From the NCBI RefSeq assembly GCF_058153355.1, contig NZ_CM177019.1: a stretch of DNA of 64,000 bases; one strand, given 5' to 3'. Shown here one piece after another: positions 2,293 to 51,211 of the stretch (its first letter is position 1; every line of letters starts with the position of its first letter). The translations under genes were made by a program, and so were the position numbers. The notes beneath the pieces are model-generated. The model saw only the letters and a program-made list of their open reading frames with translations, searched no databases and was not told where the DNA came from.

Positions 2293-2302
2293 TTGCTATG
2301 TC

Positions 2303-2378
2303 TGGTGGCCCCTGCTGGACTTGAACCAGCGACCAAGCGATTATGAGTCGCCTGCTCTAACCACTGAGCTAAGGGGCC
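2303..2378 (-). tRNA. ileX: tRNA with CAU anticodon, likely tRNA-Ile2 (lysidine-modified); elongator tRNA-Met not excluded
   Basis: Reverse complement reads GGCCCCTTAGCTCAGTGGTTAGAGCAGGCGACTCATAATCGCTTGGTCGCTGGTTCAAGTCCAGCAGGGGCCACCA: cloverleaf, CAT anticodon, encoded CCA. Position between yqjH and mug matches K-12 ileX. Confidence 0.85.
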
Positions 2379-2502
2379 ATGGTAGCGGATTATAAAGTAA
2401 CTCCGTGTCGCAATCCAGCCATTACCGCTCGCCTGCTGTTTTTATAAACAATGTATTTTCAATCCGTTATACTTTTCCTGGTGATGTTAGAAAGGAGTAA
2501 AT

Positions 2503-3008
2503 ATGGTTGAGGATATTTTGGCTCCAGGGTTACGGGTTGTGTTTTGCGGTATCAATCCTGGTCTTTCATCCGCCGGAACTGGTTTTCCCTTTGCTCATCC
2601 GGCAAATCGCTTCTGGAAGGTGATATATCAGGCTGGGTTTACCGACCGTCAGTTGAAGCCGCAGGAGGCACAGCATCTGCTGGATTATCGTTGTGGTGTC
2701 ACCAAACTGGTAGACCGTCCAACGGTGCAAGCCAATGAAGTTTCAAAGCAGGAGCTGCACGCAGGCGGGCGTAAGCTGATTGAAAAATTGAGGATTATCA
2801 ACCACAAGCGTTGGCGATCCTCGGCAAACAGGCTTATGAGCAGGGCTTTAGCCAGCGCGGCACGCACTGGGGGAAACAAACGCTCACTATTGGTTCGACG
2901 CAGATTTGGGTACTGCCAAATCCCAGCGGTTTAAGTCGCGTTTCACTGGAGAAACTGGTTGAGGCGTATCGGGAACTGGACCAGGCGTTGGTAGTGCGTG
3001 GGCGATAA
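2503..3008 (+). pseudogene. mug: G/U mismatch-specific DNA glycosylase gene carrying a -1 frameshift in an A5 run (2783-2787)
   Basis: The frame from 2503 reads ...GRKLIEK then runs into unrelated sequence to 2934. The +2 frame from 2784 reads [22 protein letters not shown]...ALVVRGR to the stop at 3008. The two halves join only if one A is added to the homopolymer. Confidence 0.8.
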
Positions 3009-3015
3009 AAAACGC

Positions 3016-3028
3016 CACCGAAAAGGTG
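3016..3028. repeat. 13-bp target-site duplication, left copy (CACCGAAAAGGTG)
   Basis: Identical 13-mer directly flanks both ends of the IS element. Confidence 0.85.
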
Positions 3029-4454
3029 TAATGCCGATCAGTTAAGGATCAGTTGACCGATCCAGTGGCTGTGTAAGAATCCGGAAACGCTCACTTGTTT
3101 CCGGATTTTTTTATGCACATTGGACAGGCTCTTGATCTGGTATCCCGTTACGATTCTCTGCGTAACCCACTGACTTCTCTGGGGGATTACCTCGACCCCG
3201 AACTCATCTCTCGTTGCCTTGCCGAATCAGGTACTGTAACGCTACGCAAGCGCCGTCTTCCCCTCGAAATGATGGTCTGGTGTATTGTTGGCATGGCGCT
3301 TGAGCGTAAAGAACCTCTTCACCAGATTGTGAATCGCCTGGACATCATGCTGCCGGGCAATCGCCCCTTCGTTGCCCCCAGTGCCGTTATTCAGGCCCGC
3401 CAGCGCCTGGGAAGTGAGGCTGTCCGCCGCGTGTTCACGAAAACAGCGCAGCTCTGGCATAACGCCACGCCGCATCCGCACTGGTGCGGCCTGACCCTGC
3501 TGGCCATCGATGGTGTGTTCTGGCGCACACCGGATACACCAGAGAACGATGCAGCCTTCCCCCGCCAGACACATGCCGGGAACCCGGCGCTCTACCCGCA
3601 GGTCAAAATGGTCTGCCAGATGGAACTGACCAGCCATCTGCTGACGGCTGCAGCCTTCGGCACGATGAAGAACAGCGAAAATGAGCTTGCTGAGCAACTT
3701 ATAGAACAAACCGGCGATAACACTCTGACGTTAATGGATAAAGGTTATTACTCACTGGGACTGTTAAATGCCTGGAGCCTGGCGGGAGAACACCGCCACT
3801 GGATGATACCTCTCAGAAAGGGAGCGCAATATGAAGAGATCAGAAAACTGGGTAAAGGCGATCATCTGGTGAAGCTGAAAACCAGCCCGCAGGCACGAAA
3901 AAAGTGGCCGGGACTGGGAAATGAAGTGACAGCCCGCCTGCTGACCGTGACGCGCAAAGGAAAAGTCTGCCATCTGCTGACGTCGATGACGGACGCCATG
4001 CGCTTCCCCGGAGGAGAAATGGCGGATCTGTACAGTCATCGCTGGGAAATCGAACTGGGATACAGGGAGATAAAACAGACGATGCAACTGAGCAGGCTGA
4101 CGCTGAGAAGTAAAAAGCCGGAGCTTGTGGAGCAAGAGCTGTGGGGTGTCTTACTGGCTTATAATCTGGTGAGATATCAGATGATTAAAATGGCGGAACA
4201 TCTGAAAGGTTACTGGCCGAATCAACTGAGTTTCTCAGAATCATGCGGAATGGTGATGAGAATGCTGATGACATTGCAGGGCGCTTCACCGGGACGTATA
4301 CCGGAGCTGATGCGCGATCTTGCAAGTATGGGACAACTTGTGAAATTACCGACAAGAAGGGAAAGGGCCTTCCCGAGAGTGGTAAAGGAGAGGCCCTGGA
4401 AATACCCCACAGCCCCGAAAAAGAGCCAGTCAGTTGCTTAACTGACTGGCATTA
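3029..4454 (+). mobile_element. IS4 insertion sequence, 1426 bp, complete
   Basis: 18-bp imperfect terminal inverted repeats TAATGCCGATCAGTTAAG (3029-3046) and CTTAACTGACTGGCATTA (4437-4454); single transposase ORF; 13-bp direct repeats at both ends; length matches IS4. Confidence 0.9.
3113..4441 (+). CDS. insG: IS4 transposase (DDE family)
   Basis: ORF 3095-4441; start at [16 protein letters not shown] gives 442 aa. Recognised as the IS4 transposase. Confidence 0.85.
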
Positions 4455-4467
4455 CACCGAAAAGGTG
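4455..4467. repeat. 13-bp target-site duplication, right copy (CACCGAAAAGGTG)
   Basis: Identical to 3016-3028. Confidence 0.85.
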
Positions 4468-4525
4468 GCGTTTGTGCAAAGGGAAAAGTGCCGGATGTGG
4501 CGTAACGCCTGATCCGGCCTACCGA

Positions 4526-6367
4526 TTAATCGTCCAGGAAGCTACGCAGCACTTCAGAACGGCTCGGGTGACGCAGTTTACGCAGCGCCTTCGCTTCGAT
4601 CTGACGGATACGTTCGCGGGTAACGTCGAACTGTTTACCCACTTCTTCCAGCGTGTGGTCGGTGTTCATGTCGATACCGAAACGCATACGCAGAACTTTC
4701 GCTTCACGCGCGGTCAGGCCAGCCAGCACGTCGTGCGTTGCCGCACGCAGGCTTTCAGTGGTCGCAGAATCCAGCGGCAGCTCGAGGGTGGTATCCTCGA
4801 TGAAATCCCCCAGATGCGAATCTTCATCATCACCGATCGGCGTTTCCATGGAGATTGGCTCTTTGGCGATTTTCAGCACTTTGCGGATCTTGTCTTCCGG
4901 CATCAGCATACGTTCAGCCAGTTCTTCCGGCGTCGGCTCGCGGCCCATCTCTTGCAGCATCTGGCGAGAAATACGGTTGAGCTTGTTGATAGTCTCAATC
5001 ATATGCACCGGAATACGGATGGTGCGCGCCTGATCCGCGATAGAACGGGTGATAGCCTGACGAATCCACCAGGTTGCGTAGGTGGAGAATTTGTAACCAC
5101 GGCGATATTCGAACTTATCTACCGCTTTCATCAGGCCGATGTTACCTTCCTGAATCAGGTCAAGGAACTGCAAGCCACGGTTGGTGTATTTCTTGGCGAT
5201 AGAAATAACCAGACGTAAGTTCGCTTCAACCATCTCTTTCTTCGCACGGCGGGCTTTCGCTTCACCGATGGACATACGACGGTTGATATCTTTAACCTGC
5301 TCGATGGTCAGGCCGGTTTCTTCTTCAATCTGCTGCAGTTTCTGCAGGGCGCGATGCACTTCTTCAGAGACATCGTGCAGTTTTTCCGACCACGGCTTGT
5401 TCATCGCAATTGCCGCGTTGAACCAGGTATCGCTGGTTTCGTTGCCGGTAAACAGGGTAATGAAGTTTTTCTTCGGCATTTTGCACTGCTCAACGCAGAG
5501 CTTCATGATCAGACGTTCTTGCGTACGAACGCGGTCCATCATGACGCGCATGCTGTTGACCAGGTAGTCAAACTGCTTCGGCACCAGGCGGAACTGTTTG
5601 AATACTTCAGACAGTTTCAGGATCTCTTCCTGAGCGGCAGCGTGACTGCGACCTTTCGCTTTGATGGTGTCACGCGTTACAACGTACTGAGCGCGCAGTT
5701 CCGCAAATTTTTCGCGAGCCAGTTCCGGGTCGATGCTGTTGTCATCATCGGCGCTATCGTCATCGCCATCTTCTTCGTCTTCATCTTCGTCATCGTCCAG
5801 ATCTTCCTGGGAAAGCTCAGAACCGACGTGAGTGGCGGTAGGTGCCAGATCTTCTTCTGCGTTCGGGTCAACAAAGCCGGTGATCAGATCGGACAGACGC
5901 GCTTCTTCTGCTTCAACACGATCGTACTGTTCCAGCAGATAGGTGATCGCTTCCGGATATTCAGCAACGGAGCATTGAACCTGGTTGATCCCGTCTTCAA
6001 TACGCTTAGCGATGTCAATTTCGCCTTCGCGGGTCAACAGTTCAACGGTGCCCATTTCACGCATGTACATGCGTACCGGGTCAGTCGTGCGCCCGATTTC
6101 AGATTCCACGCTGGAAAGCACCTGCGCGGCGGCTTCGGCAGCATCTTCGTCCGCGGTGTTTTCAGCCAGCATCAGATCATCGGCATCCGGTGCTTCTTCC
6201 ATCACCTGAATGCCCATGTCGTTGATCATTTGGATGATGTCTTCGATCTGATCTGAATCGACGATATCTTCCGGCAGATGGTCATTGACCTCGGCATAGG
6301 TCAGATAGCCTTGCTCCTTACCACGGGTGACAAGAAGTTTCAGCTGTGACTGCGGGTTTTGCTCCAT
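4526..6367 (-). CDS. rpoD: RNA polymerase sigma-70 (primary sigma factor)
   Basis: 613 aa; acidic region 1.1; regions 2-4; C-terminal ...[14 protein letters not shown]. Confidence 0.97.
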
Positions 6368-6561
6368 AAGACGGTATCCACACTTATTTCATGAGGTTGG
6401 TGTTGGGCGATTGACCCGCTGTCCTTCAGCCGTTAACGCTGAAATCCAACGGTTATTTACCGCCAACGATAATTACGAGGGCGTACTTATATATTTGCCG
6501 CTGCCTCTCAGTGCGGCTGTCGGGGGCTTCCCGATCGCTCTTCGGCACTTAAGCCGTTAAA

Positions 6562-8307
6562 TTACTTTTTCGCCAGCTCCTGGTTTAATGTCCAGAGCTC
6601 CAGGCGTTCTTCGTTGCTTAAACCATGCGTGCGCTCACGAGCGATTAACTCTTCCTGGCGCAGTTCAAGCAGCGAATCAAACATATGGTTGAGTGAGTCG
6701 GTGAAGGTTTGCTCAGCAATATTCCTATCTGCTATATCGTCCCACATCGACAGTTTTTCAAGGGTGGCAGCATTATTTGTACCACGATAGTGCTCTAAAA
6801 GTTGCCCGGTGGTCAGACCTGGCTGAGAGAGACAAGTGTTGACCAGTTCTCTGAATAAGCCAAGTCCAGGGAGCTTATTTTCATCCAGATTCTCAAGCGG
6901 CGGGACCAATGTCGCTAATTCTGGATTTTGCACCAGCAACCCTATAAGTATACGCATGGTCGTGCGTTTTAGCTGTGGAACAGGGCGAGAAACGCTGCTC
7001 TCCGCCGCTTTTGGCATTAATCGTTCAAGCTGGCTGTCATCAAGTATGCCTAATTTGTTGCCTAATTCCTGACGAAGATATATTCGCAGCGTTTCGCCCG
7101 GCACCTGCGATATCAATGGCAGTGCCAGCGTACTCAAACGTGTGCGCCCGTCAGGGGTACTCAGATCAACTTGCGGCATCAGACTGTTAAACAGAAAAGC
7201 GGAGAGCGGCATCGCCTGCTCCATCCGCGCTTCAAACGCTTCTTTACCTTCTTTGCGCACCAGCGTGTCAGGGTCTTCGCCATCAGGCAAAAACATAAAA
7301 CGTAGCTGCCGTCCGTCTGTCATGTAAGGCAACGCCGTTTCCAACGCTCGCCAGGCAGCATCGCGACCTGCACGGTCGCCGTCATAACAGCAAATGACAT
7401 TGTTGGTCGCGCGGAACAACAACTGAATGTGATCGGCAGTGGTTGACGTGCCTAACGACGCGACAGCGTAATTAATGCCGTATTGCGCCAGCGCCACCAC
7501 GTCCATATAGCCTTCGACCACAAGCAGACGATTGGGTTCAGCGTTATCCTGCTGCGCCTCATAAAGACCGTATAGCTGGCGGCCTTTATGGAAAATATCG
7601 GTTTCCGGCGAGTTCAGGTATTTGGGGGTATCGTTGCCCAGCACGCGCCCGCCAAAACCAATTACCCGACCGCGTTTATCGCGAATGGGGAACATCACCC
7701 GCTCGCGGAAACGATCGTAACTACGCCCCTGATCGTTGGTGACCAACATGCCCGCATCAATCAATGACTGACGATTTTCTGGATTACCGCCAAACCGTTT
7801 CAGGACGTTGTCCCAGCCGGGGGGCGCAAAACCAATCGCAAAGCGGGCGATAACCTCGTGGCTTAGTCCGCGTTTTTCCAGATACTGGCGCGCAGACGTG
7901 GCAACAGGTTGCTGTAAAGATTGTTGGTAAAACGTATTCAGACCGTCCATCAACTGATAAAGCGTTTGCCGTTGATGGCGTTCGATCTGACTGGGGCCGC
8001 TGCCTGCTTCAAATGGCACTTCAAGATTGTGCATTGCCGCCAGCTCTTCGACCGTTTCGACGAACTCGAGCTTGTCATAGTTCATCAGGAAGTCGATCGC
8101 GTTGCCGTGCGCGCCACATCCAAAGCAGTGGTAAAACTGTTTTTCACCGTTAACGGTGAATGACGGGGTTTTCTCGTTGTGGAATGGACAACACGCGTGA
8201 AAATTCTTGCCCTGCTTTTTCAGCTTTACACGGGCATCGATCAGATCGACGATGTCAGTGCGTGCCAGCAGATCATTAATGAATACGCGTGGGATTCGTC
8301 CAGCCAT
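6562..8307 (-). CDS. dnaG: DNA primase
   Basis: 581 aa; zinc-binding CPFHNEKTPSF motif and TOPRIM domain; rpsU-dnaG-rpoD operon order. Confidence 0.95.
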   Translation of the reverse strand: MAGRIPRVFINDLLARTDIVDLIDARVKLKKQGKNFHACCPFHNEKTPSFTVNGEKQFYHCFGCGAHGNAIDFLMNYDKLEFVETVEELAAMHNLEVPFEAGSGPSQIERHQRQTLYQLMDGLNTFYQQSLQQPVATSARQYLEKRGLSHEVIARFAIGFAPPGWDNVLKRFGGNPENRQSLIDAGMLVTNDQGRSYDRFRERVMFPIRDKRGRVIGFGGRVLGNDTPKYLNSPETDIFHKGRQLYGLYEAQQDNAEPNRLLVVEGYMDVVALAQYGINYAVASLGTSTTADHIQLLFRATNNVICCYDGDRAGRDAAWRALETALPYMTDGRQLRFMFLPDGEDPDTLVRKEGKEAFEARMEQAMPLSAFLFNSLMPQVDLSTPDGRTRLSTLALPLISQVPGETLRIYLRQELGNKLGILDDSQLERLMPKAAESSVSRPVPQLKRTTMRILIGLLVQNPELATLVPPLENLDENKLPGLGLFRELVNTCLSQPGLTTGQLLEHYRGTNNAATLEKLSMWDDIADRNIAEQTFTDSLNHMFDSLLELRQEELIARERTHGLSNEERLELWTLNQELAKK

Positions 8308-8417
8308 AGGCCCCGATTTTTAGCAATTCATAAACGAAAATAAGCCGCGCATTCCTTTCGGAAGCACGGCCTTACAACTACAACTCGGTCTGATCGGAGA
8401 GCAACGCTCTCGGGGAA

Positions 8418-8672
<255 letters not shown>

Positions 8673-8870
8673 TCAACGCCAGCTTATTTCAAAATGGTGC
8701 GGAATTTTACTGCAATTGCTGCTGCTTTGTAAAGCACCGCGGCCTTTTTTGAAAGGGACTTTTATAAGGGTGAGGAGTATACACGAGGCTTTCTCCAGGG
8801 GCGAACAAAGTTTTACATCAACCCGCATTGGTCCTACACTGCGCGGTAATAAAGCGAGGTAAAACAAGTC

Positions 8871-9884
8871 ATGCGTGTACTGGGTATTGAAACTTCCTGC
8901 GATGAAACCGGCATCGCCATTTACGACGATGAAAAAGGTTTGTTAGCCAACCAATTGTATAGTCAGGTGAAATTGCACGCTGACTACGGCGGCGTCGTGC
9001 CTGAACTGGCCTCCCGCGATCACGTGCGTAAAACCGTACCGTTGATCCAGGAGGCGCTGAAAGAGTCCGGTTTAACGGCAAAAGACATTGACGCCGTGGC
9101 CTATACTGCAGGCCCTGGATTAGTCGGTGCGCTGTTGGTTGGCGCAACGGTCGGGCGTTCACTGGCGTTTGCCTGGGGCGTTCCGGCGATCCCTGTACAC
9201 CATATGGAAGGGCATCTGTTAGCGCCGATGCTGGAAGATAACCCACCGGAATTTCCGTTTGTCGCGTTGCTGGTTTCCGGCGGCCATACGCAGTTAATCA
9301 GCGTGACTGGCATTGGTCAGTACGAGCTGCTCGGAGAGTCTATCGATGATGCCGCCGGGGAAGCGTTTGATAAAACCGCGAAGCTGCTGGGGCTGGATTA
9401 TCCTGGCGGGCCATTACTGTCGAAAATGGCGGCTCAGGGTACTGCCGGGCGCTTTGTCTTCCCGCGCCCGATGACCGACCGTCCGGGGCTGGATTTCAGC
9501 TTTTCTGGTCTGAAAACCTTTGCGGCAAATACCATTCGTGATAACGGCACCGACGACCAGACGCGTGCTGATATCGCCCGCGCCTTTGAAGATGCGGTGG
9601 TCGATACGTTGATGATTAAGTGTAAGCGAGCGCTGGATCAGACGGGCTTTAAGCGACTGGTAATGGCAGGCGGCGTGAGTGCTAACCGCACGTTACGGGC
9701 GAAGCTGGCTGAAATGATGAAAAAACGCCGTGGCGAAGTGTTCTACGCGCGTCCGGAATTTTGTACTGATAACGGCGCGATGATCGCCTATGCCGGAATG
9801 GTGCGGTTTAAAGCAGGCGCGACGGCGGATCTCGGCGTTAGCGTGCGTCCGCGCTGGCCGCTGGCAGAGTTACCGGCCGCGTAA
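8871..9884 (+). CDS. tsaD: tRNA N6-threonylcarbamoyladenosine biosynthesis protein TsaD (Kae1/YgjD family)
   Basis: 337 aa, [20 protein letters not shown]...; divergent from rpsU. Confidence 0.93.
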
Positions 9885-9926
9885 AACTATTAGGTGCCGG
9901 AGAGTCACTTCCGGCACCGTCCTCAC

Positions 9927-11390
9927 TTAAAGCAACACCACGGGCATCCACAGTAAGCCGGTAATCACCAGCAACACGAGGAATATCAGCCCAAAAATTG
10001 CCCCCAGTCGCCAGTAATCCACCGTTGGCAGATAACCACTACCGTAGTAAATTGGACTGGGTCCGGTGGCGTATGGCGTAAGAATGCTCCCCAGACCAAT
10101 TGCCGCGCCAACCATCAGGCAGAACACGGGAAGCGGGATTTCCGGCATCGCCAGCGCGGCGGCAATCATCATCGGTGCGAGAGCGGAGGTATACGCCGTG
10201 GCGCTGGCAAAGAAGTAGCGTAGCAGATAAAACACCACAATCAACGCCACCATCACCATCGTTGGCGAATAACCGCTTAAGCTGCCTGCTAACAGTTTGC
10301 CAAACCAGCTAATAAAACCGGTGTTGTTGAGTCCGGTAGCGAGGGTGATAAGCGAGGCCAGCCAGAAGAAAACGTTCCACGCGGCTTTATTACTGACAAT
10401 GTCGTCCCAACTGATAATGCGCAGAAGCAGCATCAGCGCCACCACGCTGTAACCGACCATCGCGGCATCGATATAATCACCGCCGAAAATCCACAGCACC
10501 AGCGCGCCTACCATCAGCCCCAGCATCCGTTTTTCACGCGAACAGAGCGGGCCCATTGCCTGCAGTTCCGTCTCTGCCCAGCGTGGCACCTGATCACCAG
10601 ACTTCAGTACCGGCGGGTACAGCACGTAAGCCAGCCAGGGAACCAGCAGAACCAGTAAAATGCTGAGCGGCAACATGCCGAGAAACCAGTCGCCCCAACT
10701 CAGCGTGGCGTGAGATGCGCTTTTCATCAGGCCAATTAACAGCAAGTTAGGTGCCATCGCCGTCAGGAAAATGGCGCTGGTCACGCAGTCGGCAACAATC
10801 CCCATCCACATGATGTACGAGCCAATGCTGCGCGAACTGCTGTCGTTTGGTTGTGATTGATAGAGCGGTGGCAGGTTACGGATGATGGGATAGATAATCC
10901 CCGCACCGCGCGCCGAGTTGGACGGTGTTACAGGTGCCAGGATCAGCTCGGAGAACATCACCGCATAGCCGAGAAACAGCGTACGATGCCCCATCTTTTT
11001 CACCAGAATCAGCGCGATACGTCGCCCCAGCCCGGTTTTTTCATAGCCTGTGCCAAACATAAAGGCGGCGAAAATCAGCCAGATAACCGAATTAGAAAAA
11101 CCAGAAACCGCCCAGGAGAGGGATTTGGCGGTGAACTTAAAACCTGGCTGGGCGAGCTGCTCCGGGCTAAACAGCAGCCACGGCGAGAGAATGGCGATAA
11201 TGGAGATACCCACCATCGCCACCACGGCACCCGGCACGGGTTCGAGGATCAGTCCAACGATCACGCCAGTAAAAACGGCAAAGTAGAGCCAGGTATGACT
11301 CTCCAGCCCTGCGGGAACCGGAATTAGAGCAATAATGGCGATGACCGCCAGCGGCGCAAGGTATCGCCACCATTCAGTGGAAGGTTTCAT
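9927..11390 (-). CDS. ttdT: L-tartrate/succinate antiporter (DASS family)
   Basis: 487-aa polytopic membrane protein immediately downstream of ttdAB. Confidence 0.85.
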   Translation of the reverse strand: MKPSTEWWRYLAPLAVIAIIALIPVPAGLESHTWLYFAVFTGVIVGLILEPVPGAVVAMVGISIIAILSPWLLFSPEQLAQPGFKFTAKSLSWAVSGFSNSVIWLIFAAFMFGTGYEKTGLGRRIALILVKKMGHRTLFLGYAVMFSELILAPVTPSNSARGAGIIYPIIRNLPPLYQSQPNDSSSRSIGSYIMWMGIVADCVTSAIFLTAMAPNLLLIGLMKSASHATLSWGDWFLGMLPLSILLVLLVPWLAYVLYPPVLKSGDQVPRWAETELQAMGPLCSREKRMLGLMVGALVLWIFGGDYIDAAMVGYSVVALMLLLRIISWDDIVSNKAAWNVFFWLASLITLATGLNNTGFISWFGKLLAGSLSGYSPTMVMVALIVVFYLLRYFFASATAYTSALAPMMIAAALAMPEIPLPVFCLMVGAAIGLGSILTPYATGPSPIYYGSGYLPTVDYWRLGAIFGLIFLVLLVITGLLWMPVVLL

Positions 11391-11438
11391 CGTGTTATGC
11401 CTGCGAAAAAGGAGAGGGGGTGAGCCTCTCCGGGAGGG

Positions 11439-12044
11439 TTATTTGATGTAGTGGACGTGCTCGCAAATCTCTTCCACGATGGGATCGCGGCGTTCGGCGA
11501 ACAGCTTTTTGTTTTCGGCTATCAGGTTGTTGCCGTGGGTATCAATAGAGACAATCAGCGGACCGAACTCTTTGACCCGGCAGACCCACAGCGACTCCGG
11601 CATCCCGAGTTCTGTCCAGTGCACCTCTTCAATCTCTTCCACCTGGGTTGCCGCCAGTACTGCGCAGCCTGCCGGGAAAATCACATGCAGCGCCTTGAAT
11701 TTCTGGCAGCCTTCTTCGGTCAGCGGCCCCATTCCGCCTTTGCCGACCACCAGTTTCACGCCGGTCTGTTCGATAAATTCACGTTCAAAACTTTCCATAC
11801 GCATACTGGTTGTCGGGCCGACGGATACCATCTCCCATTTGTCGCCGTTTTTGCGCACGATGGGGCCAGCGTGGAAAATCGCTTTGCCGTTGAGATCGTA
11901 AGGGATCGGACGTTTGAGTTCGATCAAGCGACGGTGACAAACGTCACGGCAGGTTACCAGCGTACCGGTCAGGTAGATCACATCGCCGACGCGAATATCT
12001 TGCAGATCTTCAGCTTTGATCGGGGTTGTCAGGATCTTTTTCAT
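11439..12044 (-). CDS. ttdB: L(+)-tartrate dehydratase beta subunit
   Basis: 201 aa; fumarate hydratase class I C-terminal-like; start overlaps the ttdA stop. Confidence 0.88.
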
Positions 12045-12952
12045 AACGCGCTCCGGGTGTGAGACAGATTTTCAAAGGTGAGATCGGCATGAACCAGCAG
12101 TGTGCCGCGACGATGCGCCCAGCAGCCGGTAGAAACAGCAACGCCGATGGTTGACGGATGGCGGGCGGCAGATTCGATATGTACGCCCATCACTGAACTG
12201 TTGCCAGTCAGCCCCTGTGGACCAATCCCCAGACGGTTGAGTCCTTCTTCCAGGCGTAGTTCCAGCTCTGCCGCTTTTGGATTGGGATGGCGGCTGCCAA
12301 TTGGGCGCAAAATGGCTTTACGTGAGAGCACAGCGGCGGTTTCCACCGAGGTGGCGATGCCCACGCCTACCAGTACCGGTGGACAGGCGTTTACGGCGAG
12401 GGTGGAGATATTTTCGAAGACGAATTTCACTACCCCTTCGTAGCCTTCCGACGGCATTAACACTTTCGAACGACCAGGCAACGTGCAGCCGCCGCCTGCC
12501 ATGTAAACTTCGATTTCCGCATCGTCACCGTCGGGGACGATATCCCAGGTGACCCACGGTACGCCGCTGCCGGTATTTTTGCCGGTGTTCACTTCGTCAA
12601 AAATTTCTACCGCATTGTGACGCAGTGGCGCTTTGACGGTTGCCTCTTCCACGGCTTGCTTAAGAATGCTTTGCAGCTCGCCAAGCAGTGGGAAACGGGA
12701 ACCGACCTTAACAAAAAACATGATTTCGCCGGTGTCCTGACAGGCAGGACGATTCAGGTCGATTGCTTTTTGCATGTTGTCGAACATCGTGTGGTAGATG
12801 ATTTTCCCCATCGACGACGTTTCGGCATCCTTTAGCTGTTTTAGTTTGTCCACCACGTCATCGGGCATTCGGGTAGAAATCATGGCGGTAAAGTTAGCGA
12901 CAATCTCCGTCAACTTATTCACTGCCTGTTGCTTATTACTTTCGCTCATCAT
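12041..12952 (-). CDS. ttdA: L(+)-tartrate dehydratase alpha subunit (Fe-S hydro-lyase)
   Basis: 303 aa; fumarate hydratase class I N-terminal-like. Confidence 0.88.
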
Positions 12953-13158
12953 GGCAACTCCAGTTTATGTATTTGTCTGGAAAAATTCACCGCCACAAAC
13001 TACCACTAAAAATGTGGTTTTATATTTTTTGCCGCCGTGAATATGTAATTCACAGTTCGTGAATCAACGCGAAAATAAGAATGAATATTGCGCCAGAGCA
13101 GGGAATGGCAATGTTTTGCGAAATACACTGCGCTTATCACAACTGCGGATAATTAACG

Positions 13159-14091
13159 ATGCTGAATAGCTGGCCTTTAGCCAAAGATTTGCAGGTACTG
13201 GTAGAAATCGTCCACAGCGGGAGTTTTAGTGCTGCAGCGGCGACGCTTGGGCAAACGCCTGCATTTGTCACCAAGCGGATCCAAATCCTTGAAAATACGC
13301 TGGCAACAATGCTGCTGAACCGCTCCGCCCGCGGCGTGGCGCTGACTGAAAGTGGCCAACGTTGTTACGAGCATGCGCTGGAAATCCTCACCCAATATCA
13401 GCGACTGGTCGATGACGTCACGCAAATCAAAACGCGCCCGGAGGGGATGATTCGTATTGGCTGTAGTTTTGGTTTTGGGCGCAGCCATATTGCGCCAGCT
13501 ATTACCGAACTGATGCGCAATTATCCTGAGTTACAGGTGCATTTTGAATTGTTCGATCGGCAAATTGATTTAGTGCAGGATAATATTGATCTGGATATTC
13601 GTATTAATGACGAAATTCCTGATTATTATATTGCGCATCTTTTGACAAAAAATAAACGAATATTATGTGCAGCGCCTGAGTATCTGCAAAAATATCCGCA
13701 GCCACAATCCTTGCAGGAATTAAGTCGTCATGACTGTCTGGTGACCAAAGAGCGCGATATGACCCACGGAATATGGGAGTTGGGGAACGGTCAGGAGAAA
13801 AAATCGGTGAAGGTAAGCGGGCACCTTTCCTCCAATAGCGGCGAGATTGTGCTGCAATGGGCGCTGGAAGGAAAAGGAATTATGCTGCGTTCTGAGTGGG
13901 ATGTTTTACCGTTTCTGGAGAGTGGCAAACTGGTGCGAGTATTGCCGGAGTATGCACAAAGCGCCAATATCTGGGCTGTTTACCGGGAGCCGCTCTATCG
14001 CAGCATGAAATTACGTGTCTGCGTGGAATTTCTGGCGGCATGGTGCCAGCAGCGGCTAGGCAAGCCCGACGAAGGCTATCAGGTTATGTAG
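13159..14091 (+). CDS. ttdR: LysR-type transcriptional activator of the tartrate genes
   Basis: 310 aa; N-terminal LysR HTH; divergent from ttdA. Confidence 0.88.
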
Positions 14092-14103
14092 ACTCGCGAA
14101 AAA

Positions 14104-14721
14104 TCACTCAGGATCCTTTTCGCGCTTTCTTTTGAATTTCGTCCAGATTTTTGTCTCCTGACGACGCCACAGACGCTGGATGTTGTCATGATGGCGCAGC
14201 AGGATCAGGCATGAGAGCATCGAAACCGGGAAGGTGAATTGTGGCTTAAACCACCAGACGTAAAATGGAGCAATCAGTGCGCTGACAATCGCTCCCAGCG
14301 ACGAGTATCCGCTCAATAGCACGGTCAGTAACCAGGTTCCCGCCATTACTCCGGTGAGATCCCAGCCAATTGGTGCGATGGCACCAAAAGCGGTAGCAAC
14401 GCCTTTTCCTCCTTTAAAACCGAAGAAAACGGGCCAGATGTGTCCAAGGCAGGCGGCGATGGCAATTAAGCCTAGCCAGAAGGGGCTGACACCTAATTCA
14501 TACGCGCCCCAGACGGGCAACATTCCTTTCAGAACGTCGAAAATCAGTACTGCTACGGCTGCTCCCTTGCCACCGATACGTAACACATTGGTTGCGCCAG
14601 GATTACCGGAGCCGCTGGTTCGCGGATCGGGCAGCCCACACAAGCGGCAAACCAGAATGGCACTGGAAATGGAGCCGCAGAGGTACGCGATGAGGATCAT
14701 TCCAGGCGCGATTGCACTCAT
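14104..14721 (-). CDS. plsY: Glycerol-3-phosphate acyltransferase PlsY
   Basis: 205-aa membrane protein, [26 protein letters not shown]... Confidence 0.9.
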
Positions 14722-14825
14722 AAGCTGTTCCGTTTTGAAAATTCGTGTTCAACGATGAATCTGTGGATAATACGCACATTTCGCCGGAAGTGGTATCCGG
14801 TTAGCCAAAAAGCAGGCAGGACGTG

Positions 14826-15194
14826 ATGGATATTGTATTTATAGAGCAACTTTCGGTAATCACCACTATTGGTGTTTACGACTGGGAACAGACCATCGAA
14901 CAGAAGTTAGTGTTCGATATCGAAATGGCGTGGGATAACCGTAAAGCGGCGAAAAGTGATGATGTGGCGGATTGCCTCAGTTACGCTGACATTGCAGAAA
15001 CGGTAGTCAGCCACGTCGAGGGCGCGCGTTTTGCGCTGGTGGAACGTGTGGCGGAAGAGGTGGCGGAGCTGCTGTTAGCACGCTTCAACTCGCCGTGGGT
15101 GCGTATCAAACTCAGCAAGCCAGGCGCAGTGGCGCGGGCGGCGAATGTTGGCGTCATCATTGAGCGTGGCAATAATCTGAAAGAAAATAATTAA
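14826..15194 (+). CDS. folB: Dihydroneopterin aldolase
   Basis: 122 aa from MDIVFIEQLSVITTIGVYDWEQ... Confidence 0.92.
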   Translation: MDIVFIEQLSVITTIGVYDWEQTIEQKLVFDIEMAWDNRKAAKSDDVADCLSYADIAETVVSHVEGARFALVERVAEEVAELLLARFNSPWVRIKLSKPGAVARAANVGVIIERGNNLKENN

Positions 15195-15284
15195 TTTTAC
15201 AGCTGTTAAACCAAACGGTTATAACCTGGTCATACTGCAGTAGTTTGGACAAGCGTTACATTTTTATAATTTAGGGGTTTATTG

Positions 15285-16106
15285 ATGAGCGATATGCACT
15301 CGCTGCTGATAGCGGCAATATTGGGTGTGGTCGAAGGATTGACAGAATTTCTGCCGGTATCCAGCACGGGCCATATGATTATTGTCGGTCACTTGTTGGG
15401 ATTTGAGGGCGACACGGCGAAAACCTTTGAAGTCGTGATCCAGTTAGGATCAATTCTGGCGGTAGTAGTGATGTTCTGGCGGCGTCTGTTTGGCCTGATT
15501 GGCATTCACTTTGGTCGTCCGCTGCAACACGAAGGAGAAAGCAAAGGCCGTTTAACGCTGATCCACATTCTGCTTGGCATGATCCCAGCGGTAGTACTGG
15601 GGCTGTTGTTCCACGACACGATTAAGTCGTTGTTTAATCCAATAAATGTGATGTATGCGCTGGTCGTTGGCGGTCTGTTGCTGATTGCCGCCGAATGTCT
15701 GAAGCCGAAAGAACCGCGTGCGCCGGGTCTCGATGATATGACCTATCGTCAGGCGTTTATGATTGGCTGCTTCCAGTGTCTGGCGCTGTGGCCAGGTTTC
15801 TCCCGTTCCGGGGCGACCATTTCAGGTGGGATGCTGATGGGTGTGAGCCGTTATGCGGCTTCTGAGTTCTCGTTCCTGCTGGCGGTGCCGATGATGATGG
15901 GCGCAACGGCGCTCGATCTCTACAAAAGCTGGGGCTTCCTGACAACCGGCGATATCCCGATGTTTGCCGTTGGGTTTATCACCGCTTTTGTGGTGGCGCT
16001 GATAGCGATTAAAACCTTCCTGCAATTGATTAAGCGCATTTCGTTTATCCCTTTCGCCATTTATCGCTTTATTGTGGCTGCTGCGGTGTATGTCGTGTTC
16101 TTTTGA
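15285..16106 (+). CDS. uppP: Undecaprenyl-diphosphate phosphatase
   Basis: 273 aa from [30 protein letters not shown]. Confidence 0.92.
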
Positions 16107-17488: not shown

Positions 17489-18109
17489 TTAGTTCATCCA
17501 GCGATCTTTACGTTTGCGCGTTGGGATCAGGTGCGGCAGTACCAGACCGAGCAGCAAGCCAAGCCCCAGCACGCCGCCACCATACATAAACCACTGCATG
17601 ATGATGGTGCGCTGTTTGTCATCCAGCTGCACGCTGGCGGCATCGACCTTTTTCTGCGCGACAATCAGCTCGTTTTTCAGTTTCTGATTTTCTTCTTTTA
17701 ACCCGTTGATCACGCTGTCGCTCTGCGCCACTTTTTGCTGCATTTCTGCGGTGCGCTGATTCCAGGTGTTATCGATATTGGTGAGCTTATCGGTCAGGGT
17801 TTTGACCTGATTTTCCTGATCTGGCACACGGGAGCGCAGGCTTGGCTCTGTGCTAAGTTGTTTCAACGGGATCCAGGCAGTTCGGCCAGAGCTGTCTTTC
17901 ACCTGGGCATAATTGGTGTTGGCGTCAGTTTGTAATAAGGTCACTTCCTCGCCGGCGTTAACCGTGCCCACGAGGCGATAATGGTCTCCCGGACCGCTAC
18001 GGACCCAGGTATTCAGTTCGTCGGAAACATAGCGCGTTTCTTCAGCGTGTGAGACGGCAGTGGCGCTAAGTGCAAGTATAGTTAATCCGATCAGGCGTAA
18101 TTTTGGCAT
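17489..18109 (-). CDS. ygiM: SH3-domain inner-membrane protein
   Basis: 206 aa from MPKLRLIGLTILALSATAVSHA (signal peptide), coiled-coil segment, C-terminal transmembrane helix. Confidence 0.8.
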   Translation of the reverse strand: MPKLRLIGLTILALSATAVSHAEETRYVSDELNTWVRSGPGDHYRLVGTVNAGEEVTLLQTDANTNYAQVKDSSGRTAWIPLKQLSTEPSLRSRVPDQENQVKTLTDKLTNIDNTWNQRTAEMQQKVAQSDSVINGLKEENQKLKNELIVAQKKVDAASVQLDDKQRTIIMQWFMYGGGVLGLGLLLGLVLPHLIPTRKRKDRWMN

Positions 18110-18348
18110 CAGGCTGTCGTTATTGTCTGGGAAAAGTGGAACGATAGTAGTGGCATCAGTGTCGCTACGCAAAGCATTCGCTATCAATCGGAATCCTCTG
18201 TGTCAGGTGCCACAGCTTCAATCTTTTACGCCCGTCAAATTGCCCGTTGCATGGCAATTTGGCGCAAAATACTATCTACTGACAAAAAAGATCGCATTAA
18301 GTTCGCCGTTCATCGTCACTTATGTGACATAACCGATAAGTAAAGGCC

Positions 18349-27907: not shown

Positions 27908-28561
27908 ATGAATCAGACGCTACTTTCCTCTTTTGGTACGCCTTTCGAACGTGTTGAAAATGCACTGGCTGCGCTGCGTGAAGGACGCGGTGTAATGGTG
28001 CTTGATGATGAAGACCGTGAAAACGAAGGCGATATGATCTTCCCGGCAGAAACCATGACCGTTGAGCAGATGGCGCTGACCATTCGCCACGGTAGCGGTA
28101 TTGTTTGCCTGTGCATTACTGAAGATCGCCGTAAACAACTCGATCTGCCAATGATGGTAGAAAATAACACCAGCGCCTATGGCACCGGTTTTACCGTGAC
28201 CATTGAAGCGGCTGAAGGTGTGACTACCGGTGTTTCTGCCGCTGACCGTATTACGACCGTTCGCGCAGCGATTGCCGATGGCGCAAAACCTTCTGATCTG
28301 AATCGTCCTGGCCACGTTTTCCCACTGCGCGCGCAGGCGGGTGGTGTGCTGACGCGTGGCGGCCATACTGAAGCGACTATTGATCTGATGACGCTGGCAG
28401 GCTTTAAACCGGCTGGTGTGCTGTGTGAGCTGACTAATGACGATGGCACGATGGCGCGTGCACCAGAGTGCATTGAGTTTGCCAATAAACACAATATGGC
28501 GCTCGTGACTATTGAAGACCTGGTGGCATACCGTCAGGCACATGAGCGTAAAGCTAGCTGA
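27908..28561 (+). CDS. ribB: 3,4-dihydroxy-2-butanone 4-phosphate synthase
   Basis: 217 aa; [42 protein letters not shown]... Confidence 0.95.
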
Positions 28562-28593
28562 AAACCGCTGCTTAATTTACCGCGTTAATCAAG

Positions 28594-28627
28594 AAACCGA
28601 AGCTATTACTGGCTTCGGTTTTTATTT
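28594..28627 (+). terminator. Rho-independent terminator of ribB
   Basis: AACCGAAGC-TATTACT-GGCTTCGGTT hairpin followed by TTTATTTT. Confidence 0.75.
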
Positions 28628-28799
28628 TGCTCTTGTTATGCAAGATGTTAATTCCTCTTCTCTTTCTATGAGAAAATTTCATTAATATCAGGCATTCTTT
28701 TCCATTATGATCAAAATCATATAATTGTTCCGTTATTATGCGACCATATGAATATATCCGAAAAAGGATATGTGAATTTTATGCGCTAAATGTTTAGTA

Positions 28800-36975: not shown

Positions 36976-38871
<1,896 letters not shown>

Positions 38872-38900
38872 TAATCCTCCCGCCAGAAGAATAAAACATA

Positions 38901-38932
38901 GCCCGGTATACAAGTGTATACCGGGCTTTTTT
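38901..38932 (+). terminator. Rho-independent terminator of parE, at the left boundary of the accessory island
   Basis: GCCCGGTATAC-AAG-TGTATACCGGGC hairpin followed by TTTTTT; the stop codon of the convergent receptor gene lies 3 nt beyond the T-tract. Confidence 0.8.
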
Positions 38933-38934
38933 GA

Positions 38935-41076
38935 TCAAAATTCCATTTTCACCGTGAATTGCACTTCACGAGGATCGCCAATCTGGTTGCCCAGATTATT
39001 TGTGGCGATGGAAGAGGTGTAATACGTTTTATCAAACAGGTTTTTGACGTTTAATTGCAGTGTGACCGGATACTGCAATTTCATTTTGTATGCGGCGAAG
39101 GCATCGGCAACAAAATAGCCTGGCAGATAATAGTCAGCCCCATTGGTTGCCGAACGACGGCTTACACCATGTCCACCACCGCCAAACGTCAGTGTGTTAT
39201 TGCCTGGCATGTTATGAATATCATAGGTCAGGAATAGCGAACCGGTATGACGAGGAACATTCGGCAATGGTTTCCCTGCATAATCAGGATCCTCCAGAAC
39301 CTTAGCATCGGTATAGCCGTAGCTGGCAATGATATTAATGTTTTCAGTTAATGCTCCCGCAAGGTCGACTTCTACCCCTCTTGAACGAACACGGCCTGCC
39401 GTTTTGGCAATGGTTTCATCACCAACACTTTCGGTATACAACACATTACGTTTATGGATATCAAACAGCGCAATATCTGCGGTGATACCATCGAATAGCT
39501 CGAATTTTGCCCCGACTTCGTAAGCATTAGATGATTCTGGTGGCAGATCGCCAATGTAGCTGGCAATTGACGATTGCGGCATAAATGTTTGCGAATAATT
39601 GGCAAATAAGGATACCGATGGCGTCAGTTTGTAGACCAATCCCAGTTTGGGAGTCCATTGTTCATCGCGGCTGTCAGTATTGACATTAAAAGGACGGCCT
39701 TTACCCGCATACTGCGTGTAATACTGATAGCGGAGCCCGGCGACGGCAATCCAGTTATCGGTCAGATAGAGTGCGTCCTGTGCATACGCTGAGTAGCTCT
39801 CCTGTTTGATCGTCTGATCACTGTCCGACGCCGAAACCGTTGTGCATTTGCTGGTAATACCATAAACGGGGTTGTAGATATTGAAATCTTTAGCTTTTTT
39901 ACAGCGAATCATATCTGTGCGCAGAAGATCATAATATTCATATGACACCCCACCCAGAATCTCATTATAGAATCCAGCAACATCAACATTCCCTTGCAGA
40001 TCCGCACGAGTAGCATGCATACGCTGGGTAGATCCTTGAGTTGCATCAACACGCCGTGTCAGCGTTCCTGTCGTTGCATCATACGCGGTAACGCGAGCTT
40101 GATTATCGCTGTATTTATCCTGGCTGTAGCTGTAATCAAAGCGCGCTGTCCACTGGCTATTGAGATGATATTCTGCGTTGAGTTGCGCCAGATCGGACTG
40201 ACCATCTGTAATATTAAACGGTTCGTCAAAACGTATTTTTCGATCAACGTTTACGGGCTGTTTCGTCGTAAGGTCGAAAATCGTTCCACGATCGAACGGC
40301 GTTTTATAATCCCGATGAGAATAGAGCATGGTTACTGTTGCATTATCACCAAACCAGGTGAGTGATGGAGCAATAAATGTACTGCGCTCTTTACCGAAGT
40401 TTCGCCAGTAATCTTCATCTTGCACTTCCCCAATAAGGCGATACGCCAGCTGAGTGCCTTCAATGGGACCTGTGATATCCAATTGCCCAGTGCCTCCGCC
40501 AAAACTGGAGGAAGTGGCTGAGACAGTACCATGGAATGTTTTTTCCGGGCGCTTTGTCACGACGTTAATCAGTCCGCCAGGATCGAGAATGCCATACAGC
40601 GTGGAGGCCGGACCTTTTAGCACTTCCACACGCTCTGTGGCGGCGTTGAAACTGCGAGGAAGTACAGTTCGCAGGCCGTTGGTCATGATGGAGCCATCCC
40701 GGTTAGCACCAAACCCACGACGTACAAAAGCATCCTGAGTCCCGCCTAATGTATTGGTCTGTACCACGTTACTGACGTTATAAAGTGCCTCATCCAGCGT
40801 CGTCGCATTCTGATTTTCCAGAACTTGATCGCTAACCGTATTGACCACCTGCGGGATATCCAGCATCGGCATATCGGTTAATGTCGCCGTGGAGGTGCTC
40901 AGAGGTTGATAACCATCGGTCGCCTCAGTTGCGGTATTTGCATCCGCTGTAACAGTGATTGTTTCGCCATCTTTGGTCGTTACAGTGTCGGTTGCATGAA
41001 TCATCGGTGCTGCAAAGAGCAGTGAAAAGAGCGCTCGACCTTTGAGTCCTGAGAATGAAGGTGTGAACATAGCCAT
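38935..41076 (-). CDS. TonB-dependent outer-membrane receptor, siderophore type
   Basis: 713 aa; N-terminal signal peptide, TonB-box-like ETITVTA, plug-domain motifs, beta-barrel with C-terminal aromatic residue (...VKMEF). Confidence 0.85.
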   Translation of the reverse strand: MAMFTPSFSGLKGRALFSLLFAAPMIHATDTVTTKDGETITVTADANTATEATDGYQPLSTSTATLTDMPMLDIPQVVNTVSDQVLENQNATTLDEALYNVSNVVQTNTLGGTQDAFVRRGFGANRDGSIMTNGLRTVLPRSFNAATERVEVLKGPASTLYGILDPGGLINVVTKRPEKTFHGTVSATSSSFGGGTGQLDITGPIEGTQLAYRLIGEVQDEDYWRNFGKERSTFIAPSLTWFGDNATVTMLYSHRDYKTPFDRGTIFDLTTKQPVNVDRKIRFDEPFNITDGQSDLAQLNAEYHLNSQWTARFDYSYSQDKYSDNQARVTAYDATTGTLTRRVDATQGSTQRMHATRADLQGNVDVAGFYNEILGGVSYEYYDLLRTDMIRCKKAKDFNIYNPVYGITSKCTTVSASDSDQTIKQESYSAYAQDALYLTDNWIAVAGLRYQYYTQYAGKGRPFNVNTDSRDEQWTPKLGLVYKLTPSVSLFANYSQTFMPQSSIASYIGDLPPESSNAYEVGAKFELFDGITADIALFDIHKRNVLYTESVGDETIAKTAGRVRSRGVEVDLAGALTENINIIASYGYTDAKVLEDPDYAGKPLPNVPRHTGSLFLTYDIHNMPGNNTLTFGGGGHGVSRRSATNGADYYLPGYFVADAFAAYKMKLQYPVTLQLNVKNLFDKTYYTSSIATNNLGNQIGDPREVQFTVKMEF

Positions 41077-41176
41077 TTAGTCTGTTATCCCAAAAACTCG
41101 CGGATTGTCGCGAGTGAAAATTGTTTCTTATTGCTCACTAAGCACTATCCGTTTGTTATTTCGCCATCGGATATGT

Positions 41177-41195
41177 AATTGAGAATCATTCAATC
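41177..41195. promoter_or_regulatory. Candidate Fur box in the divergent control region of the island
   Basis: AATTGAGAATCATTCAATC; the core TGAGAATCATTCA matches the Fur consensus TGATAATCATTAT at 11 of 13 positions. Lies in a 373-bp AT-rich region between the receptor gene and the ABC operon. Confidence 0.45.
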
Positions 41196-41449
41196 ACGCG
41201 GTAATGTAGTAGTAAATGAGAAATAACAAAAAATTGCTACATGTGTTTTTATGAAAGGTTTATACAATTTAATTGTTTTTAATTTATTGATATTTAATGT
41301 TTTTATTTGTATGTGCAAAAATATTTTACCTGTTATTTACCTTGTTTTTGTGTGGCTTTTAACTGCTTGACTACTACATTTTGTGGCGTCAAACTCTCAA
41401 AGGAGAATGAGTTTTATTTTTGTTTGTCTTTGATTAAGTTGGCGTACAC

Positions 41450-42259
41450 GTGGCACATAACGCAAAAGGGCAGGGGCTGATCCTCGACAATGTTTCTGCC
41501 GGGTATCACAAGAAAATCATTGTTGATGGTGTTTCTTTCTCCGTTCCCACAGAAAAAATGACCGTTCTGGTTGGGGCAAACGGCTGTGGAAAGTCGACGC
41601 TGCTCAGCACCATTGCTCGTATCTTGCAACCCATGGGCGGTTCGATATTGCTTGATGGCAACGCGATTCACGAGCAACCAACGAAAGCGTTATCCCGTAG
41701 ACTTGGGATCTTGCCGCAGTCGCCATTATTGCCGGAGGGCTTAACCGTTTATGAACTGGTGTCGCGTGGGCGTTTTCCCTGGCAGAATTTCATTCGTCAA
41801 TGGAGCGATGCCGATGAGCTGGCGGTAGAAGAGGCCCTGAAATTAACGGGTACGCAGGAGTTTGCACATTTACCTGTTGAAAAACTCTCTGGTGGGCAGC
41901 GCCAGCGTTGCTGGATTGCGATGGTGTTGGCGCAAAAGACGCCTTATATCCTGCTGGATGAACCCACAACATGGCTTGATTTACGTTATCAGGTTGAAAT
42001 TCTTGAGTTATTACATGATTTAACGCGTCATCACGGGCGTACAGTCGTCGTGGTGTTGCATGATCTGAATTTTGCCGTCAATTATGGCGATACGTTGATA
42101 TTTTTACGCCAGGGGAAAGTGGTGCGTGTGTTGAATGAGGGGGAGCATTGCACGCCTGAGCTGGTAAAAGCGGTCTTTGACGTTGATGTTCACGCATCAA
42201 TAAATCCTCTGACGGGAAAGCCGTTCTTCATGCCGTTTCGTGGTGTAGAAAAAGTATGA
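41450..42259 (+). CDS. ABC transporter ATP-binding protein, FepC/FhuC/FecE-like
   Basis: 269 aa; Walker A GANGCGKST, signature LSGGQRQR, Walker B ILLDEPT, H-loop; apparent GTG start. Confidence 0.85.
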   Translation: MAHNAKGQGLILDNVSAGYHKKIIVDGVSFSVPTEKMTVLVGANGCGKSTLLSTIARILQPMGGSILLDGNAIHEQPTKALSRRLGILPQSPLLPEGLTVYELVSRGRFPWQNFIRQWSDADELAVEEALKLTGTQEFAHLPVEKLSGGQRQRCWIAMVLAQKTPYILLDEPTTWLDLRYQVEILELLHDLTRHHGRTVVVVLHDLNFAVNYGDTLIFLRQGKVVRVLNEGEHCTPELVKAVFDVDVHASINPLTGKPFFMPFRGVEKV

Positions 42260-43239
42260 TGCGCACAGGGCTGGTTACTGTAATTTTCCTCGCCTTACTG
42301 CTGGTGGGATGCGTGGTATATCCAGGGATTGGTGCCCGATTTATTGCACCACAAACGGTGTTGCAGGCATTTCTTCATTTTGATCCGCAAAACTTCGATC
42401 ACAACGTAATTGTAAGACTCCGTTTGCCGCGTTTAGCGGCAGCATTGCTTACCGGTGCTTCTCTTGGTGTTGCTGGTGCTTTGTTGCAGGCTGTCATTCG
42501 TAACCCATTGGGGGAGCCACATATTTTAGGCTTAAATGCCGGAGCCGCTCTTGCTGTCGTTGCCGCCAGTGCGCTTGGACTGGCCTTTCCGATTGGACGC
42601 CCACTGCTGGCATCTACGGGGGGCGCGTTATTGTTCCTGTTGATATTGCTGCTTTCCTCCGCAGGGCGTTCAGGGTTAACGCCAATGAAAGTTACTTTAT
42701 GCGGCGTGGCGCTATCGGCGTTCGTGTCCTCAATAACGGCTGCAATCCTGATTCTTGACGAACAAACACTGCTGGCGATGCGGACATGGCTAGCAGGTGA
42801 TTTAGCGGGGCAGGATTGGGCGACGCTGGGTACGTCCGCCTGGTTTTCTCTGGGGGGATTTGTGTTAGCCCTTTACCTTGCACCCTCCCTTAACATGTTG
42901 GCACTGGGCGATCGCATGGCGCAGGGGCTGGGCGTCTCTGTATTCCGCACGCGAACATTCACCCTGCTTGCGATCGCGTTGCTCTGTGGCGCAGCCGTAT
43001 CGATTGCTGGCCCCATTGGTTTTGTCGGCCTGCTAGTACCGCAGATTGTCCGGCGTCTGGTATCAGCGGATCTGTGCGTTCTGCTCCCTCTTTCAGCTTG
43101 TGTCGGCGCACTTTTGTTATTACTGGCAGATATTATTGCCCGTACGCTTTTCACGCCCCATGAGTTAGCGACCGGTGTCATGACGGCGTTAGTTGGTGCG
43201 CCTGTTTTTGTCATTATGGCGACGAGGATGTTCAAATGA
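42256..43239 (+). CDS. ABC transporter permease, FecCD family (iron-siderophore/B12 type)
   Basis: 327-aa polytopic membrane protein; start overlaps the ATPase stop (ATGA). Confidence 0.85.
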   Translation: MMRTGLVTVIFLALLLVGCVVYPGIGARFIAPQTVLQAFLHFDPQNFDHNVIVRLRLPRLAAALLTGASLGVAGALLQAVIRNPLGEPHILGLNAGAALAVVAASALGLAFPIGRPLLASTGGALLFLLILLLSSAGRSGLTPMKVTLCGVALSAFVSSITAAILILDEQTLLAMRTWLAGDLAGQDWATLGTSAWFSLGGFVLALYLAPSLNMLALGDRMAQGLGVSVFRTRTFTLLAIALLCGAAVSIAGPIGFVGLLVPQIVRRLVSADLCVLLPLSACVGALLLLLADIIARTLFTPHELATGVMTALVGAPVFVIMATRMFK

Positions 43240-44285: not shown

Positions 44286-44295
44286 CGGGAGTTAT

Positions 44296-46127: not shown

Positions 46128-46171
46128 TCTGGGCTGAGACCGGTAGCAGCACCGGCCTCTTTTCAGGAATG

Positions 46172-50874: not shown

Positions 50875-51211
50875 TGAAGAATCTTTACCGGAGTGTGAGC
50901 CAAATCACTCGCTATCAGTTTAAGTTAACGATGCCACAGGCGTATTGTTGTCCGCTCAGACTCTGACGGCACAGGATTTTGTCCTTCCACACAGAAACCG
51001 CCATTGGCGGTTTTCCGCTGCATAATCCGCAGGATTATGTCTACAGCAAAGAGTTGTATATCAAGGCACATTGATGCCTTTATCGCCGTCGGAGCACGTC
51101 CGGCGGCGCTATTCACGCTGATCTCCTGTGACTCGACGCGGCAGATAATGTAGTATCTCCGGCAATATTGCCCCTTTGAAGGCTGGCGAATAAGTTGAGG
51201 AATCAGAATTA

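Follow-up and report, generated by a model that had tools for sequence, protein, structure and literature searches.

The question raised by this locus is whether an Escherichia coli isolate has lost its DNA-repair glycosylase Mug, or whether the mug gene has been broken only in the assembly that represents it. In the stretch of DNA analysed here (64,000 nucleotides of contig NZ_CM177019.1, referred to as the window), mug is divided between two reading frames at a short run of A residues. A preceding sequence-only reading had framed this as either a genuine inactivating mutation or a homopolymer sequencing error, and had taken a nearby IS4 element to make a real loss plausible. The dichotomy proved to be right, and the argument from IS4 found no support.

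The A run of mug and the encoded protein

The mug gene begins with an ATG at 2503, preceded by AGGAG, and meets a run of five A residues at 2783-2787 in the context GCTGATTG-AAAAA-TTGAGG. In the comparators the run consists of six A and is read as the codons GAA AAA ATT, i.e. E94, K95 and I96. The frame opened at 2503 departs from Mug after Lys95, continues as LRIINHKRW... and terminates at the stop codon 2932-2934, and the rest of the protein, ending in ...ALVVRGR*, is found in the -1 frame. The elements of the broken gene are as follows.

2503..2934, plus strand: ORF as encoded, 143 aa, made up of Mug residues 1-95 and 48 out-of-frame residues
2783..2787, plus strand: run of five A, the frameshift site; six A in all comparators
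2784..3008, plus strand: -1 frame with Mug residues 95-168; no decay, sequence identical to that of the intact allele

All that had been stated about the sequence itself holds. The ORF listing returned 2503..2934 with 143 aa for the frame said to leave Mug and to stop at 2934, translation of the second frame yielded the C-terminal portion located at 2784-3008, and five A do stand at the proposed junction 2783-2787. One extra A, predicted to restore a glycosylase ORF of about 168 aa, gives a single protein of exactly 168 aa (2503..3008, plus strand) that matches the NCBIfam model NF007570 over its full length (336 bits over 1-168, cutoff 144), as compared with 191 bits over model positions 1-97 only for the ORF as encoded. 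The IS4 element, placed about 240 bp from the run, starts at 3029, 242 bp after it. The alignment with mug from other E. coli that had been proposed as a check was made with two genomes; both have six A, and the window differs by a single-column gap exactly in the A run. The five-A run is thus no chance pattern: at this point the window is truly one base shorter than every comparator.

The restored protein is identical to the crystallised E. coli MUG (PDB 1MUG/1MTL) in 166 of 168 residues. The 143-aa ORF retains in frame the motif GINPGL (16-21) as well as F30 and K68, whereas PNPSGLS (139-145) is not in frame with the N-terminal domain and is encoded only in the -1 frame at 2784-3008. GINPGL is catalytic, roles have been described for F30 and K68, and the PNPSGLS loop contacts the orphan guanine (PMC12001322). 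A product without residues 139-145 should be inactive (PMC12001322), and the frameshift, if real, should be a null allele; as written, the gene would receive a pseudogene annotation. The enzyme is expressed in stationary phase, and its mutants are only minor mutators: the number of Rif-resistant mutants rises about 6-fold once stationary phase has lasted more than 2 days (PMC3074160; PMC3553953). A null allele would be tolerated because the mutator phenotype is only minor and the gene dispensable (PMC3074160; PMC3553953).

Occurrence of the shortened run and accuracy of the window

The mug sequence of the window had no 100% match among about 5425-5426 complete RefSeq E. coli genomes. Its best matches, in strains 2013C-4282, WL297 and 2020CK-00188, were 99.8-99.6% identical, the value of 99.8% being due to the single gap. 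Throughout positions 2301 to 3028, covering promoter, coding sequence and spacer, only the missing A separates the window from 2013C-4282 and WL297, and the part downstream of the run has 0 substitutions relative to both; since nothing else has changed in comparison with an otherwise identical intact allele, the event is either extremely recent or not real. A synthetic five-A version of the common mug allele likewise gave only one-gap matches in 4845 genomes and none that was exact. Pattern scans for the five-A run in the GTDB species representatives and JGI metagenome contigs were empty, a result of low power as judged from the six-A control, which matched one record only (Escherichia sp. E1V33). 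The exact restored Mug was on record in 890 blocks of a public assembly index and the exact NfeF in 611 blocks. The 24 longest contigs with exact Mug or NfeF, belonging to other sublineages, all carried a 168-aa Mug directly abutting rpoD, and six such contigs checked at the DNA level had six A in every case (6/6). The proteins encoded on this left side of the window are common variants, none of them rare enough to single out the contigs of its own clone.

The window mug differs from the common E. coli allele by 25 synonymous and 2 nonsynonymous codon differences. Purifying selection in the Mug frame has shaped the allele, also downstream of the frameshift. The allele (2503-3008) was also found to be mosaic relative to the common one: its first 285 nt differ at 7 nucleotides and its last 222 nt at 21, almost all of these changes being synonymous. 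Such a distribution suggests an old recombination breakpoint inside the gene, which would lie near the A run by coincidence.

About 60 genes of the window were compared with the closest complete genome, that of 2020CK-00188 (98.6-99.2% identical). All were full length except the frameshifted mug and the deleted ygiS, so that mug is the only frameshifted gene among them. An origin of the window from Shigella or another decaying genome was rejected, since its 64 kb contain a single IS and some 58 of 60 genes are intact. Searches with exact protein variants of the window returned five contigs each for DnaG, the TonB-dependent receptor and YgiQ, three for GlnE and nine for YgiF. Two short-read assemblies at NCBI and three read-set assemblies from Logan account for most of these; the contigs of the same clone were 99.98-100% identical to the window, and the other YgiF contigs belonged to a more distant sublineage at about 99.1%. 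Three isolates of the clone of the window were recognised in this way.

Isolate A: GCA_015332025.1 / SRR8656992
Isolate B: GCA_043012465.1 / SRR28786219
Isolate C: SRR31441161

The same-clone contigs were tiled over positions 4460-64000. Relative to isolate B the window showed 5 SNPs and 0 indels in 59.5 kb, relative to isolate A 4 SNPs and 0 indels in 21.3 kb, and relative to isolate C no difference in 18 kb; protein look-ups revealed the YgiF and GlnE variants of the window in isolate C as well. The complete set of SNPs versus isolates A and B comprises positions 52096, 52304 (parC), 61096, 19568 (ygiF), 25362, 12988, 20033 and 29143, and SRR31441161 matches the state of the window at every one that could be checked. 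On the strength of these positions, isolate C is either the same isolate as the window or its nearest relative. One contig of isolate B is 100% identical to window positions 4460-15307 and ends at 4460, inside the target duplication of IS4, which is the usual behaviour of short-read assemblies at a repeated IS.

All homopolymers of at least 5 nt in these 59.5 kb, 238 of 238, have the same length as in the independent assemblies; 63 of them measure at least 6 nt, and no other homopolymer error of the window assembly was detected over the same distance against the same-clone short-read contigs. This concordance argues against an error-prone assembly, with the limitation that 0 wrong among 63 runs bounds the per-run error rate only below about 5%.

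The exact 143-aa product had no record in the public index, in which three Logan assemblies of the clone of the window are included. As a control, the truncated ORF of a PGAP-annotated frameshifted pseudogene of 2020CK-00188 was recorded from the Logan assembly SRR12519139 and not from the NCBI record, demonstrating that Logan entries use their own gene calls and hold frameshift products. The absence of the 143-aa product from the record suggests, indirectly, that isolates A, B and C carry an intact mug and that the five-A run is private to the assembly of the window.

In a homology search with the 143-aa product, many frameshifted Mug products were found in public collections, and dozens of distinct frameshifted Mug 'proteins' are present in the protein collections. 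The same junction (…LIEK followed directly by LKIIS…) occurs in seven independent contigs, as the A6-to-A5 contraction either alone or together with a G5-to-G4 contraction located 85 nt downstream of the A run. Six of the seven also have essential or neighbouring genes (rpoD, dnaG, nfeF, nfeR, aer) in fragments or cut, and the seventh does not extend far enough for this to be judged. The identical pair of A6-to-A5 and G5-to-G4 contractions in mug was seen in five independent, unrelated samples with broken rpoD and dnaG. Because rpoD, dnaG and nfeF are broken in the same contigs, the contraction is marked there as a systematic base-calling error. Taken together, the A5 plus G4 pattern reads as the signature of systematic homopolymer under-calling and the mug A6 run as a recurrent miscall site; errors of this kind thus propagate into protein databases. 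The window has the contraction of the A run only, and the G5 run of its mug is correct.

The IS4 insertion and the neighbouring genes

Downstream of mug an IS4 element separates the gene from the convergent rpoD. The features flanking the frameshifted gene are the following.

2303..2378, minus strand: tRNA with anticodon CAT upstream of mug; tRNA-Ile in RefSeq relatives, Met according to ARAGORN
3010..3028, no strand: bidirectional terminator of mug and rpoD, left half after the split, with the 13-bp duplication CACCGAAAAGGTG at 3016-3028
3029..4454, plus strand: IS4, 1426 bp, with an intact transposase ORF at 3095..4441; IS4 family transposase in RefSeq relatives
3078..3112, plus strand: hairpin at the left end of IS4, followed by T7 (-23.3 kcal/mol, z -7.0; inverted repeat I3)
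4425..4450, minus strand: hairpin at the right end of IS4, followed by TCTTTTTC (-18.7 kcal/mol; transcript tail UCUUUUUC)
4455..4467, no strand: the 13-bp target-site duplication, second copy; the terminator's right half comes after it
4526..6367, minus strand: rpoD, convergent with mug, intact, protein 100% identical

IS4 is an element of about 1.4 kb with terminal inverted repeats, a target duplication of 11-13 bp and a DDE transposase ORF, and the element found here, with its 1426 bp, 13-bp duplication and intact ORF, agrees with this description. It lies 21 bp beyond the stop codon of mug and interrupts the hairpin AAACGCCACC-GAAAA-GGTGGCGTTT, which forms the bidirectional terminator shared by mug and rpoD. 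IS4 prefers symmetric AAA-N20-TTT targets, as known from the literature of the 1980s. On insertion the calculated energies of the hairpin change from -17.9 and -16.5 to -6.1 and -7.7 kcal/mol, the mug side falling from -17.9 to -6.1. The hairpin with T7 at the left end of IS4 lies about 70-105 nt after the mug stop codon and, according to the folding predictions, is a likely substitute terminator for transcripts leaving mug; the hairpin at the right end is likely to serve rpoD in the same manner.

An identical mug-IS4 junction was found in 53 of 5426 complete E. coli genomes, all with a different mug allele, and IS4 is absent from the strains carrying the mug allele of the window itself. This distribution suggests a recurrent insertion hotspot or the transfer of a segment. 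In both of the junction loci inspected (2/2) mug is annotated as intact, and among the best 30 matches listed, mug is named without a pseudogene note in 30 of 30 and an IS4 transposase in 23 of 30.

Several further features of the window were recorded. The tRNA-Ile call made in RefSeq for 2303-2378 is that of the lysidine-modified ileX type. The gene ygiS, coding for a 535-aa ABC-transporter substrate-binding protein, is deleted at 50949-51004 with its last 23 codons remaining, and its deletion junction is common to 13 complete E. coli genomes and therefore represents a genuine lineage polymorphism. Strain 2013C-4282 lacks an island that lies between parE and ygiN at 38867-46172 and encodes a MurR-like regulator, an ABC transporter and a TonB-dependent siderophore receptor; the binding-protein gene of this island is frameshifted in 2020CK-00188, with G4 in place of G5 at window position 44710, as confirmed by the Logan assembly of SRR12519139. 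The spacer between ygiM and ygiF (18080-18260) is only 94.6% identical to all 5425 E. coli genomes, with the flanking genes at about 99%, and relatives, but not the window itself, have ISEc41 (IS200/IS605 with TnpB) in it. In strain 2013C-4282, ribB and the yqiD/zupT region are separated by an operon for fimbriae (usher, chaperone and fimbrial subunits, about 5.5 kb), which is missing from the window (28557-28706) and from 2020CK-00188.

Origin of the missing base and its meaning

That the contraction is present in the sequence, is the sole difference from the intact allele and is absent from all comparators is a matter of observation. As its cause, a homopolymer-length miscall that survived assembly and polishing is favoured with modest confidence. 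One base would have been dropped from the A6 run across Mug codons 94-96 in this assembly, the sister short-read data sets would carry six A, and the organism would possess a normal 168-aa Mug, leaving no biology to explain. If the read sets of the same clone do have A6, as presumed, the call in the window is wrong. This explanation is favoured because only one assembly shows the contraction, there is no further difference, the sisters probably lack it and the error mode is known. Against it count the otherwise very high accuracy of the window, mug being its only frameshifted gene, the indirect nature of the evidence for six A in the sister read sets, and the dispensability of mug (PMC3074160; PMC3553953). 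A genuine and very recent loss of function, in which replication slippage would have deleted one A of the A6 run and exchanged residues 96-168 for 48 unrelated ones, yielding a glycosylase predicted to be inactive, is accordingly a serious possibility, if somewhat short of an even chance. The faultless homopolymer calls over 59.5 kb, with no other gene frameshifted, speak for it, and so does the lineage, in which frameshifted pseudogenes are normal: 2020CK-00188 has two in the homologous 74 kb, one of them borne out by an independent read-set assembly. It also counts in its favour that spontaneous indels arise mainly in homopolymer runs. Selection against the loss is expected to be weak in view of the minor stationary-phase mutator phenotype (PMC3074160; PMC3553953), and the missing residues 139-145 should suffice to end activity (PMC12001322). 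However, the gene bears no second mutation and no sign of relaxed selection, the codon differences from the common allele being 25 synonymous versus 2 nonsynonymous, with 0 from the intact identical allele; the contraction is seen in no other genome and apparently not in the three read sets of the same clone, so that a loss, if real, is at most isolate-deep; and A6-to-A5 is a known mode of error. Overall, the evidence tilts slightly towards an artefact over a real loss.

Two further readings of low probability were considered. Decay of mug at the level of the lineage, triggered by or linked to the IS4 in the terminator, could appeal to the splitting of the terminator 21 bp past the stop codon and the weakening of the hairpin on the mug side (-17.9 to -6.1 kcal/mol), and the sequence-only reading had invoked the neighbouring element in this sense. 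It is nevertheless very unlikely: 53 genomes share the junction, with mug intact in the inspected loci and listed matches, the left end of IS4 provides its own hairpin of -23.3 kcal/mol with T7, mug has not decayed beyond the single base, and the sister assemblies that break at the same IS4 boundary apparently lack the frameshifted ORF. IS4 as the cause of a loss of mug was thus rejected, the insertion lying beyond the stop codon, the same junction coexisting with intact mug and replacement hairpins being present. Still less credible is a functional slippery or phase-variable site, by which A5 would yield some wild-type Mug, through a -1 slip of tRNA-Lys on A-AAA-A or through transcriptional slippage, or by which A5 and A6 would form a reversible switch of a stationary-phase anti-mutator. 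Movement of the P-site tRNA-Lys from AAA at 2785-2787 to AAA at 2784-2786 would indeed restore exactly ...IEKIEDY..., but all orthologues examined are single-frame with A6, so that the frameshift is not conserved. Nor is there any run-length polymorphism among more than 4800 genomes, the exact A5 being found in none of 4845 for the common allele and none of 5425 for the allele of the window. A run of five A also falls far short of the lengths at which transcriptional slippage or phase variation becomes efficient. Both programmed frameshifting and a phase-variable tract were rejected, as neither a frameshift nor a length variation is conserved.

The five-A run is thus real in the sequence and ordinary in its cause, whether this is an error of base calling or a harmless knockout that has only just arisen, and nothing in it is new. 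An artefact would have no effect beyond a pseudogene annotated in error. If it is real, one isolate lacks a dispensable base-excision enzyme of stationary phase; the excision of ethenocytosine, of U:G and of 8-oxoA would be lost, with an expected weak and mild mutator effect, the mutation rate probably being raised slightly when stationary phase is prolonged. In terms of method, the tiling of exact protein matches against short-read assemblies of the same clone allows single frameshifts to be judged, and the A6 run of mug is shown as a recurrent miscall site in public assemblies.

In relation to known systems, the locus corresponds to that of E. coli Mug, a family-2 uracil-DNA glycosylase (1MUG; NF007570; Pfam PF03167), with the N-terminal 95 residues in frame and the order nfeF, tRNA, mug, rpoD kept. 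Unlike E. coli Mug, the ORF of the window as written lacks residues 96-168, the other genomes examined having A6. The contraction is the same as that of mug in noisy or long-read assemblies; unlike these, the window has only this one discrepancy, with its G5 run and 238 other homopolymers correct. The change also resembles ordinary slippage pseudogenes of E. coli, in which a dispensable gene has likewise gained or lost one base in a short mononucleotide run. The siderophore-binding protein gene of 2020CK-00188 in the same region, with G4 instead of G5, is a comparable case of slippage and is confirmed by an independent read-set assembly, whereas the mug case is confirmed nowhere. Finally, the 1426-bp IS4 with its 13-bp duplication inside a hairpin conforms to IS4 insertions at palindromic, terminator-like targets, and it is a neighbour of the frameshift and no part of it.
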